From: Escherichia phage CMSTMSU
Sequence record: MH494197.1
DNA: 64,000 bases
Strand: one strand, 5' to 3'
In this document: positions 19,622 through 26,402 of the stretch, piece by piece
Numbering within the stretch: the stretch's first letter is position 1
How the letters are laid out: the number at the start of each line of letters is the position of its first letter
The notes under the pieces: model-generated
Told to the model about the DNA's origin: nothing
What the model saw: the letters and a program-made list of their open reading frames with translations, nothing else
The model's database searches: none
Program-made: the position numbers and the translations under genes

Positions 19622-19858
19622 CTAAACCACGATCCCAAAACCAGTTCCGTGACCTTCGCGGGTAAGGAACAGATCATGACCAGCTTGCTCATAACCGTAA
19701 TCAATAAACATACCGCGAACTACTTCCAGATCATTACCGTGTTTCTCAATGAAGCGAGAACATGCAATCACTGCCGCTTGATGGGCTTGCTCTGATAATT
19801 CATAATCTTCCGTAATCGCCGTTCTCATTGTGTACAGTACTGAATTGCATAGCTTCAA
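19622..19858 (-). CDS. hypothetical protein (fragment of a longer frame-disrupted gene, about 19560..19935)
   Basis: An upstream ATG with MSTTTNLARN… and a downstream extension …GFWDRGLGHYGD lie in other frames. Confidence 0.45.
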   Translation of the reverse strand: MKLCNSVLYTMRTAITEDYELSEQAHQAAVIACSRFIEKHGNDLEVVRGMFIDYGYEQAGHDLFLTREGHGTGFGIVV

Positions 19859-20339
19859 TGTAAGCTACAACCATTGCAGCATGATTTTTATCGTTAGTGA
19901 TGTTCCGAGCGAGATTAGTAGTAGTAGACATGATTTTATTCCTTTTAGTATCGGGGAGAACTATTCTCCCTTGATGTAAACTATTATACAGTACTAATAT
20001 ACTTTGTCAATACTTAATTACGTTTAAAATGATATGTGCCTTTATCATCCTGTACGCCCCATACTGATTTACCATCAACACCAGTGAAGCCGGATTGTAA
20101 TTCAATATGGAAACCATTATTATCAACTACAAAAACTTTTTATTTTCATCCCGATAACATTGATATTCTGAATCAACATTAAAGGCCGCATCATTCAGAA
20201 GATTAGAAGCGTAAATGCAAGTCATTGTAGTCATGATTTTATTCCTTATTGCCGTGGAACCGTTCCTCTCGATATAAAACATTATACTTGATTCTAAGTA
20301 TAATGCAAGTACTTTTTAAAATAGTTTTCAGTACTGAAT

Positions 20340-20440: not shown

Positions 20441-20507
20441 TTTTATCGTGTTACCTTACTTGCTGCCACATCACGCTTTTTATAGTACTGATTCCAGATA
20501 TTGCTGG

Positions 20508-20825
20508 TTAAACCGTAATCAAGTACTTTAATAAGTCCATTACGATCCCGCCGATATTCTGTTTTCTGATATCTCTTATCGTTAGTGTTGATAATGTATC
20601 ATCGACGTGTTGTAGTGCATCAGCAAAGCGGTGCTGGCGTTCAATGGCATTACGTTTAATATTGTACTTTAATTCATTGCACGCGTTTACGTGCTTTACA
20701 CTGCCTTTACTTGCAGTACTCAACCGATCCATAACGATAAACATATTATCAGGATCGCATAAATGCATATGCACCTTTGCAAAGTACTGTTTCAACTGAG
20801 GGCGGTCATAGTCTAAAAATTCCAT
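20508..20825 (-). CDS. hypothetical protein (105 aa)
   Basis: Track ORF, minus-strand block. Confidence 0.5.
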   Translation of the reverse strand: MEFLDYDRPQLKQYFAKVHMHLCDPDNMFIVMDRLSTASKGSVKHVNACNELKYNIKRNAIERQHRFADALQHVDDTLSTLTIRDIRKQNIGGIVMDLLKYLITV

Positions 20826-20891
20826 ACCTTACATTCAGTTTCATTTTGTTCGACACCCGCATCACAATTCGCGACCTTAATCACTAACCGA

Positions 20892-21080
20892 TCATTTAAA
20901 GCGAAAACTATACGGGAAGATCCGCCCGATGATCTCCAGTCCAGCTAACCGACAAGCTGAAAGGATCTCTTTGTTGGTTTCCATTTCTGACAGTGTACGG
21001 ATGAATTTAGTATAATTACGCATTGCATGTTCTCCTTGAGTTAATGAAACTATATTACAGTACTTTACTATCAATGGCAA
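20892..21080 (-). CDS. hypothetical protein
   Basis: Track ORF. Confidence 0.4.
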   Translation of the reverse strand: MPLIVKYCNIVSLTQGEHAMRNYTKFIRTLSEMETNKEILSACRLAGLEIIGRIFPYSFRFK

Positions 21081-24636: not shown

Positions 24637-24994
24637 CGGACTTCCTTTGTGATAGTAGTATGAATGTACATTTATTGTTATCCTCTATTAAATTAATATT
24701 ACAGTTTATGAATCAATTCTTTATCTAAGCGATAGCGTACATTATTAATAGTAACGGCATTGTTTTAATGCTACGCTGTACAGGTCCACCAGCAATAACA
24801 AATGTTGCTTTATTACCCCGAACAATGATAGCACTTCCGTGATTACCGAAATCATCTTGTACTAAAATACTTGATAAGTTTTCCATTTTATTTCTCTTAG
24901 TAGGGAAGATGTTTCCTTGATGTAAGTACTATAACAGTACTGAAAACTAATTGCAAGTACTATGATAAAATCATGATAGGATATTCACTATCGA

Positions 24995-25279
24995 TCAGTA
25001 CCTCGAATCCGAACCCTTCGTACCATTCTTTAAGATTAAAGGCGTTATCTTCTCCGTATCGCATTCTAAGATGATACAATCTGAATCATCAGCGGCATCG
25101 ATAAAGGCATTCATTAATTCGTTACCTTCACCATTGCCCCGACTATCAGGATCAACATAAAGAGAATCAATGAAAGCAACACGGTCATAATCAAGATCCG
25201 GTGCAATGATTCCACGTTTAACAAACCAGTACTGCAATTGTGCTACTTTGCTGTACCTGATAACCAGTGATCTCGCCAT
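24995..25279 (-). CDS. GNAT-family N-acetyltransferase, central fragment (full frame-disrupted gene about 24971..25313)
   Basis: VAFIDSLYVDPDSRGNGEGNELMNAF resembles the GNAT acetyl-CoA-binding motif A; …LKEWYEGFGFEV continues in another frame. Confidence 0.55.
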   Translation of the reverse strand: MARSLVIRYSKVAQLQYWFVKRGIIAPDLDYDRVAFIDSLYVDPDSRGNGEGNELMNAFIDAADDSDCIILECDTEKITPLILKNGTKGSDSRY

Positions 25280-25462
25280 TGTCAGTAGTACGCGTGATAT
25301 GTTGTATTCCCATGATTTCTATCCTCAGTTAAGATATAAAACATTATACACTATCTTTCAGTACTGTCAATTACTTTTATCTCATAGATCTATGCCAACA
25401 ATTACGCGGATCTCTTTAAAAGTACTATCATGATCCTCCGGCAAGTAATACAATACATGCAC

Positions 25463-25630
25463 CTATAACGGCCCGGCGTCGATTCTCAGGGATTTTACCG
25501 CCGCAGTCGAGGCAATGTACAGTGATTCTCTTTGTGCGTTAATTTGCTTTCTAGCGTGGTTAACGGCGGCCTGAATCACTGCGTTAATCTCGTCTTGTTC
25601 GGCCCCGTCTTTCGCGAATCCTACAGCCAT
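25463..25630 (-). CDS. hypothetical small protein (55 aa)
   Basis: Hand-translated; MAVGFAKDGAEQDEINAVIQAAVNHARKQINAQRESLYIASTAAVKSLRIDAGPL. Confidence 0.4.
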   Translation of the reverse strand: MAVGFAKDGAEQDEINAVIQAAVNHARKQINAQRESLYIASTAAVKSLRIDAGPL

Positions 25631-25962: not shown

Positions 25963-26160
25963 TTAATTTTTTCTATCATTAATTAATGCTTTCAGTACTA
26001 TACTAATAACTTGCAATGATTCATCAATGACAATGAAATTATTCTCTTTCATTAGATGATAGTTACCATTGATTGTATATTCTAACGAGTACTGTTTACG
26101 TTTAATTTTTGATAATGTTTCTATTTGTTTTTGTACTGATTTCATGCTAATCATTGTCAA
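25963..26160 (-). CDS. hypothetical protein
   Basis: Track ORF. Confidence 0.4.
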   Translation of the reverse strand: MTMISMKSVQKQIETLSKIKRKQYSLEYTINGNYHLMKENNFIVIDESLQVISIVLKALINDRKN

Positions 26161-26258
26161 ACGTCCTGTAACGCATTCTAACGAGATAAACGGTTGAGTA
26201 CTGGCATTGTATAGGGTAATGATTAAAGCCCACCAGCGTTAACCAGTGGGCTATAATC

Positions 26259-26402
26259 TTACATCTTGCGGATAATCTTAACAGTATCTTTCACCGATTT
26301 ACCGTTTTGCTGACATTGCTCGATCATCGCGTATTGTTCTGCGGTCAGATCCTCGCCAGTTTTTGCCAGTACTGCGTCGATGAATGAATCCAGTGCGATC
26401 AT
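26259..26402 (-). CDS. hypothetical small protein (47 aa)
   Basis: Hand-translated; followed by hairpin AGCCCAC…GTGGGCT. Confidence 0.4.
   Translation of the reverse strand: MIALDSFIDAVLAKTGEDLTAEQYAMIEQCQQNGKSVKDTVKIIRKM

Follow-up and report, generated by a model that had tools for sequence, protein, structure and literature searches.

Locus, reading-frame pieces and repair

The window, i.e. the whole stretch of 64,000 nucleotides from Escherichia phage CMSTMSU (MH494197.1) that was analysed, carried on its minus strand a small gene of the GNAT acetyltransferase type that was interrupted at two sites and distributed over three reading-frame pieces. The gene, its pieces, the two breaks and the flanking signals were mapped as follows.

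24960..25313, minus strand: whole mini-GNAT gene, from ATG (25313-25311) to TAG (24962-24960)
25313-25218, minus strand: ORF of piece 1, which starts MGIQHITRTTDNGEITGYQVQ
25251..25313, minus strand: frame piece 1, codons 1-21, MGIQHITRTTDNGEITGYQVQ (tblastn residues 1-21, 100% identity)
25279-24995, minus strand: ORF of piece 2, which contains VAFIDSLYVDPDSRGNGEGNELMNAF
25056..25250, minus strand: frame piece 2, roughly codons 23-87 of the intact protein, with predicted beta4, motif A (RGNGEG), alpha3 and beta5
25079-24960, minus strand: ORF of piece 3, which contains LKEWYEGFGFEV and ends LKEWYEGFGFEVLIDSEYPIMILS before the stop
24960..25053, minus strand: frame piece 3, the C-terminal part running to EDNAFNLKEWYEGFGFEVLIDSEYPIMILS before the stop, with predicted alpha4 (invariant Y99), beta6 and beta7
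25251, minus strand: break 1, two nucleotides missing; one G only, against GGG in JNE01, Ecwhy_1 and JP4 and AGG in 121Q (five-way alignment)
25054..25055, minus strand: break 2, one nucleotide missing; GG where JNE01, Ecwhy_1 and JP4 have GGG and 121Q has TGG (five-way alignment)
25343..25370, minus strand: promoter-like site of the GNAT gene, TTGACA, 16 nt, TATAAT (12 of 12 consensus positions)
25322..25326, minus strand: Shine-Dalgarno-like GAGGA, 8 nt upstream of the ATG
24928..24956, minus strand: promoter-like site belonging to the downstream neighbour, TTGCAA, 17 nt, TATAGT, overlapping the GNAT stop region
25380-25630, minus strand: adjoining gene for a DksA/TraR-type C4 zinc-finger protein (85 aa in relatives; Pfam zf-dskA_traR, 37.9 bits)

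In the preliminary description, three peptide pieces of an acetyltransferase had been placed at 24971-25313. All three were found on the minus strand, where they were read in the ORFs and were recovered by tblastn with an intact orthologue in frames -3, -1 and -3; the E values of 1e-43 and 7e-17 put them far beyond chance. The start at 25313 was right, but the interval stopped short at 24971, the gene continuing to the TAG at 24962-24960. A second copy in the window, for example in a duplicated terminal repeat, was not found by blastn or tblastn, and the match was confined to 24960-25313.

Over the 1.1 kb around the gene, identity to the Asteriusvirus jumbo coliphages (121Q/PBECO4 group) was 89-96%. 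The orthologue in these phages was one uninterrupted ORF of 357 nt (118 codons and a stop), compared to 354 nt for the gene in the window, and was annotated as acetyltransferase or GNAT family N-acetyltransferase in 121Q, Ecwhy_1, JP4 and fEgEco12. The same intact ORF was annotated only as a hypothetical protein in JNE01 and WPEC3. The GNAT assignment of the gene is already known from these annotated relatives, and 121Q gp295 (YP_009101882, “GNAT family N-acetyltransferase”) is the same gene, with 94.9% identity to the repaired product. The Asteriusvirus orthologues also occupied the same place, flanked by the gp296 homologue and the gene for the DksA/TraR-like zinc finger, and had the same promoter. 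A weak tblastn match at 1993-2175 (E = 0.19) was considered as another GNAT and was rejected as chance, because the corresponding WPEC3 proteins had no Pfam GNAT match.

At break 1 the window read ACAGCAAAG, compared to ACAGGGCAAAG in JNE01, Ecwhy_1 and JP4 and ACAAGGCAAAG in 121Q. At break 2 the window read ATACGGAG, compared to ATACGGGAG in the same three phages and ATACTGGAG in 121Q; this break turned GATACGGGAGAAG into GATACGGAGAAG and destroyed the D-T-G-E motif conserved in the family. When three G's were put back in silico, two at 25251 and one at 25054/55, a protein of 118 aa was obtained that was 100% identical to the products of Ecwhy_1, JNE01, JP4 and WPEC3, and both repaired junctions gave back family-conserved sequence (..GY.V.. 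and ..D-T-G-E..). An uninterrupted 118-aa match was detected by tblastn in 24 phage records, 18 of which were identical to the repaired protein. Compared to the close Asteriusvirus orthologues, the gene differed only by the three missing G's, attributable to sequencing error, and by a few silent substitutions: against five relatives (JNE01, Ecwhy_1, JP4, WPEC3 and fEgEco12), 6-10 differences were counted, every one of them synonymous. Based on these counts there was no sign of relaxed selection and, as judged from the substitution pattern, purifying selection on the gene extends to the CMSTMSU genome itself.

Family and predicted fold of the repaired protein

The GNAT fold proposed earlier from the unrepaired letters was borne out when the repaired protein was searched with the Acetyltransf HMMs. 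Three Pfam models scored above cut-off, namely Acetyltransf_1 (37.2 bits; cut-off 20.7), Acetyltransf_7 (33.5; 27) and Acetyltransf_10 (26.3; 23.6), with the GNAT profile matched over the C-terminal half only (positions 53-116). The repaired protein also matched PHROG acetyltransferase families. Among the NCBIfam subfamily models none came near threshold, the matches being far below it (RimI, 20.5 bits against 86.4; ArsN1, AAC(6') and others). A HMMER search of 1.84 billion representatives gave 290 relatives at E <= 1e-3; most were 118-140 aa long, some were C-terminal domains of larger proteins, and many were located in phage-like contigs.

From these a family of 44 sequences was aligned, in which the Acetyltransf_7 match was found in 41 of 44 members. 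G64 and Y99 were invariant, and G13, G17, Y18, R59, G62, L83, D86, F93, W98, F104, P113 and M115 were conserved in at least 90%. The features of the family were an N-terminal G-x-x-x-G-Y hairpin, an N-W helix and a D-T-x-E motif. The structure predicted by AlphaFold2 on the 44-sequence alignment had a pLDDT of 93.3 and a pTM of 0.86, and its elements followed the order beta(3-10), beta(13-21), alpha(25-33), beta4(45-54), alpha3(63-74), beta5(80-84), alpha4(95-100), beta6(105-108) and beta7(114-117), so that the GNAT core beta4-alpha3-beta5-alpha4-beta6(-beta7) was found in the model. Motif A (Q/R-x-x-G-x-G/A) was present as R59-G-N-G62-E-G64 between predicted beta4 and alpha3. The canonical N-terminal beta1-alpha1-alpha2 arm (region of motifs C/D), by which the acceptor site is shaped in GNATs, was absent from the model and was replaced by the hairpin (3-21) and one helix (25-33); compared to typical GNATs, the repaired protein was shorter by about 20-40 residues. 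As modelled, it is a minimal GNAT that keeps the predicted acetyl-CoA site and the alpha4 Tyr. Minimal GNATs are known, such as AcrVA5 and the YjdJ-like proteins.

The reduced architecture also raised the question of a GNAT fold without enzyme activity, that is, a binding or scaffold protein comparable to pseudo-acetyltransferase domains or to AcrVA5 in its binding of Cas2. The length of only 118 aa, the absence of the canonical alpha1-alpha2 arm, the confinement of the profile match to positions 53-116 and the want of a subfamily model near threshold would all agree with such a role, and AcrVA5 is reported to act also by direct interaction with Cas2, independently of acetylation (PMC11021501, 2024). 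However, the R-x-x-G-x-G acetyl-CoA pyrophosphate motif and the alpha4 Tyr were invariant or nearly so in 44 diverged members, as expected of an active GNAT, and AcrVA5, which is of comparable size, is a GNAT acetyltransferase that acetylates Cas12a, as described in PMC9114340. A purely non-enzymatic protein was considered rather unlikely.

PDB sequence searches, whether started from the repaired protein or from the family profile, matched GNATs of all substrate classes, so no inference on specificity could be drawn from them and the substrate cannot be deduced from the sequence. The nearest solved structures, 1y9w from Bacillus cereus and 2g3a from Agrobacterium, are small uncharacterised GNATs, with 16-20% identity. 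Around the two closest metagenomic homologues, hypothetical genes in phage-like contigs and SocA_Panacea, AAA_23 and HD domains were found, with no conserved partner hinting at a target, and a literature search on an Asteriusvirus acetyltransferase found no paper.

The gene had also been called the only recognisable enzyme fold in the early block. When the 85 annotated CDS of the equivalent WPEC3 block (11876-36687) were scanned with Pfam, GNAT was the sole enzyme family above threshold, and to this extent the statement stood. The other matches were the DksA/TraR zinc finger, a ParE-like toxin domain in one small protein (E = 6.4e-11) and three DUFs, among them DUF7249 in two proteins (E = 3.8e-13), together with weak sub-threshold matches to Pkinase and Tox-PL-2. 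A caveat was the following neighbour.

20446-21023, minus strand: kinase-like protein of 194 aa (WPEC3 19736-20320)

Its Pkinase match was below threshold (17 bits against 31.7; E = 0.004). The annotation in fEgEco12 and ph0011 was serine/threonine or protein kinase, and this protein is a candidate for another enzyme of the block. A second TraR/DksA-like gene, for which no Pfam match was obtained, was annotated in WPEC3 (26129-26341) about 1.1 kb beyond the zinc-finger gene that adjoins the GNAT gene.

Origin of the two frame breaks

The CMSTMSU genome was sequenced on a MinION Mk1b with a FLO-MIN106 flow cell, base-called with Albacore 2.1.3 and assembled de novo with Canu into a 386.4-kb contig of 35.6% GC, and the announcement mentioned neither polishing nor short reads (PMC6256653). 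The GC content of the window was 35.59%. The reads were MinION R9.4 reads, deposited in raw form at SRA SRP158495, and the call on the breaks was made here from the assembled sequence.

The window was compared over about 32 kb (window 1493-33098, WPEC3 1-32699) with WPEC3 as the clean reference, and contained 263 deletions of 1-2 nt and 24 insertions, a ratio of more than 10 to 1, with private deletions at about 8 per kb. Homopolymers of at least 6 bases were found at 0.41 per kb in the window compared to 1.84 per kb in WPEC3, and C5 or G5 runs numbered 0 in the aligned stretch of the window compared to 17 in WPEC3. Deletions in the window fell on 38 of 48 six-base runs and 11 of 12 seven-base runs of WPEC3, and on 31 of its 55 CCWGG (Dcm) sites (56%) compared to 0 of 98 GATC sites. 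In the same aligned stretch, ORFs of at least 60 aa covered 60% of the window and 86% of WPEC3; for the window in its full length the ORF coverage was 64%. Homopolymer shortening and errors at Dcm motifs are a hallmark of R9.4-era base-calling. In its excess of deletions, shortened runs of at least six bases, damage at CCWGG and fragmented ORFs, the window was like other unpolished Canu assemblies of that era, and no feature distinguished it from typical R9.4-era nanopore errors. The two GNAT sites are three-base runs. Runs of three G's were affected less often than long homopolymers, yet they were an observed error class in the comparison with WPEC3. The asymmetry between CCWGG and GATC may reflect phage DNA that was Dcm-methylated but free of disruptive Dam methylation, or a base-caller able to handle 6mA.

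Near the gene the same pattern was found. In a five-genome alignment of 3.9 kb around it, the window had 33 private deletions and 0 private insertions, compared to 0-3 deletions in each of the four relatives. All four neighbours tested (DksA-like, gp296-like, DUF7247 and kinase-like) were split across frames in the window. The DksA/TraR-type zinc-finger gene was split by several single-base deletions, and in the five-way alignment further private single-base deletions were identified in this gene, in the gp296 homologue and in the next gene.

The preliminary description had presented the gene as frame-broken. As a property of the phage this was not upheld, since the breaks belonged to a set of about 290 window-specific small deletions with a nanopore signature in an assembly for which no polishing was reported. 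Because such private deletions extended over the window and the source was a nanopore assembly without reported polishing, the frame breaks were regarded as an artefact and not as biology. Nanopore base-calling and assembly would have dropped three G's from two GGG runs and so given rise to the apparent split into three frames. The most probable reading, with a probability of roughly 0.92, is that the locus is an intact, conserved 118-codon minimal GNAT gene, the orthologue of 121Q gp295, split only through the three G's lost in base-calling or assembly.

The breaks could instead be real, and the gene a genuine pseudogene, i.e. an accessory GNAT inactivated by frameshifts of -2 at 25251 and -1 at 25054/55. 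The deposited sequence itself carries both breaks, and both sites are short GGG runs and not long homopolymers. The gene is moreover dispensable in nature, since PBECO4 lacks the whole cassette and seven further records have a gap of the same size, and a true pseudogene would be tolerated because PBECO4-type phages live without the GNAT gene. However, similar private deletions at about 8 per kb extended over at least 32 kb and split every neighbour tested, and a phage with so many real frameshifts would be inviable. The net loss was exactly 3 nt and the repair restored 100% identity to 18 relatives, while the changes in the gene were all synonymous (6-10, against 0 nonsynonymous), and the assembly was a nanopore one with no polishing reported. 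Thus a disruption of the frame was present, while neither a disruption specific to this gene nor an accumulation of nonsynonymous changes was found, and inactivation of the gene in the phage is judged very improbable. Programmed recoding, in which the three frames would be joined by ribosomal frameshifting or transcriptional slippage at G runs, has next to no chance of being right: both shifts lie at G-containing sites, and +1/-2 and -1/+2 events would give the full-length product, but it was rejected because there was no slippery heptamer and no long homopolymer at either site (ACAGCAAAG; ATACGGAGAAG) and no recoded orthologue, 24 of 24 orthologous genes being in one uninterrupted frame, and the window-wide error pattern already accounts for the breaks.

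The loss of three G's in the assembly also had consequences beyond the locus. An 80-aa “hypothetical protein” of CMSTMSU corresponded to window 25237-24995 on the minus strand, i.e. to the middle-frame ORF read from an internal TTG start, and included an out-of-frame tail, EKITPLILKNGTKGSDSRY, that would be absent but for the second frame break. Only two clusters were matched among the 5.8 billion proteins searched, one of them being this 80-aa fragment. In a large protein library the artefactual fragment was the representative of its 50%-identity cluster, and therefore a sequencing error has spread into derived databases. In practice, apparent frameshifts, pseudogenes, short ORFs and missing homopolymers in the 64 kb are to be presumed nanopore errors, and the window should be checked against a clean relative first (WPEC3, JNE01 or Ecwhy_1). 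The biological weight of the finding is small, since 121Q and many relatives already carried the gene under an acetyltransferase annotation, and its standout feature is an artefact.

The cassette, its proposed function and comparison with known systems

The GNAT gene was located within a long run of small genes on the same strand, nearly all of them without assigned function. The fEgEco12 orthologue was g031, about 12 kb from the left end of the genome, and in vB_Ec-M-J “Direct Terminal Repeats” were annotated over the GNAT gene. The promoter-like site of the gene was 30 nt upstream of the ATG and was conserved in relatives, and its spacer started with a recurrent GTACT. In PBECO4, which was aligned, the GNAT cassette was absent exactly between two promoter cores containing CAGTACT, the right-hand boundary of the missing cassette being the promoter-like site at 24928..24956. 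The breakpoint was at about 1800-1850 of the PBECO4 segment compared to 1840-2270 of the JNE01 segment, and corresponded to window 24928-25370. By DNA search, seven other relatives had an equally large gap (about 400 nt), PBECO4 alone having been aligned at the breakpoints. This arrangement suggests that early-gene cassettes may be gained and lost by recombination between repeated promoter sequences.

Copies of the gene were also detected outside the genus. In Shigella phage SF1-1 (146 kb; PQ571307.1 77703-78056), whose genome is unlike Asteriusvirus in scale, the GNAT copy was 95.8% identical, and in Klebsiella phage 05F01 (147 kb; LC483177.1 4093-4416) a homologue of 47% was found. These two copies point to horizontal transfer of the cassette from one phage group to another. 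Because of its own promoter, its absence from PBECO4 and the homologues in SF1-1 and 05F01, the GNAT gene was regarded as a mobile, accessory and self-expressed cassette.

The palindrome AGTACT occurred 257 times in the window, 12-fold more often than the base composition would predict (about 21.5), and was densest from 8000 to 44000. It was found in or next to promoter-like sites, as TTGACAGTACTgaaagatagtgTATAAT at 25370-25343 and tttCAGTACTgtTATAGTACT near 24945, and also inside coding sequence, for example in the GNAT gene at about 25234. Possible roles are those of a promoter or regulatory element specific to the phage, or of a recombination motif.

Modification of host proteins or small molecules during takeover, as put forward in the preliminary description, is plausible in view of the strong sigma-70 promoter of the gene's own and its place in a small-gene block near the genome end. 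The gene would be transcribed early by the host RNA polymerase, from the block of small genes that lies within or next to the terminal repeat in relatives. The protein would bind acetyl-CoA through the beta4-alpha3 loop and pass the acetyl group to an amine, with Tyr99 as the probable general acid. The target would most likely be a lysine or the N-terminus of a host protein, in takeover or anti-defence, and less likely a small molecule. The widest form of this proposal is that the uncharacterised family of 118-140-aa mini-GNATs, carried in Asteriusvirus in an early promoter-bounded cassette beside the DksA/TraR-like gene, would represent a new enzyme of counter-defence or host takeover, acetylating a host protein and thereby disabling it; this is a long shot. 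The remaining scientific value lies in this uncharacterised mini-GNAT family.

Among known systems, the anti-CRISPR protein AcrVA5 from Moraxella mobile elements (PDB 6iuf; crystallised chain of 95 residues) was a parallel of comparable size, and the minimal GNAT fold of about 90 aa is shared with it in the model. The predicted fold of the repaired protein had AcrVA5 among its closest matches in the PDB, with an identity of merely 17-22% in the structural alignment. When PDB sequences were searched with the 44-member profile (E <= 0.01), 6iuf was absent among the best 60 of 63 GNATs listed, and to this extent no relationship to AcrVA5 was detected by sequence profile. Cas12a is not known from E. 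coli, and the target would therefore need to be another one than that of AcrVA5. Compared to AcrVA5, the mini-GNAT family described here carries an additional hairpin at the N-terminus, with the G-x-x-x-G-Y motif, and the resemblance in fold and size is taken as a lead only.
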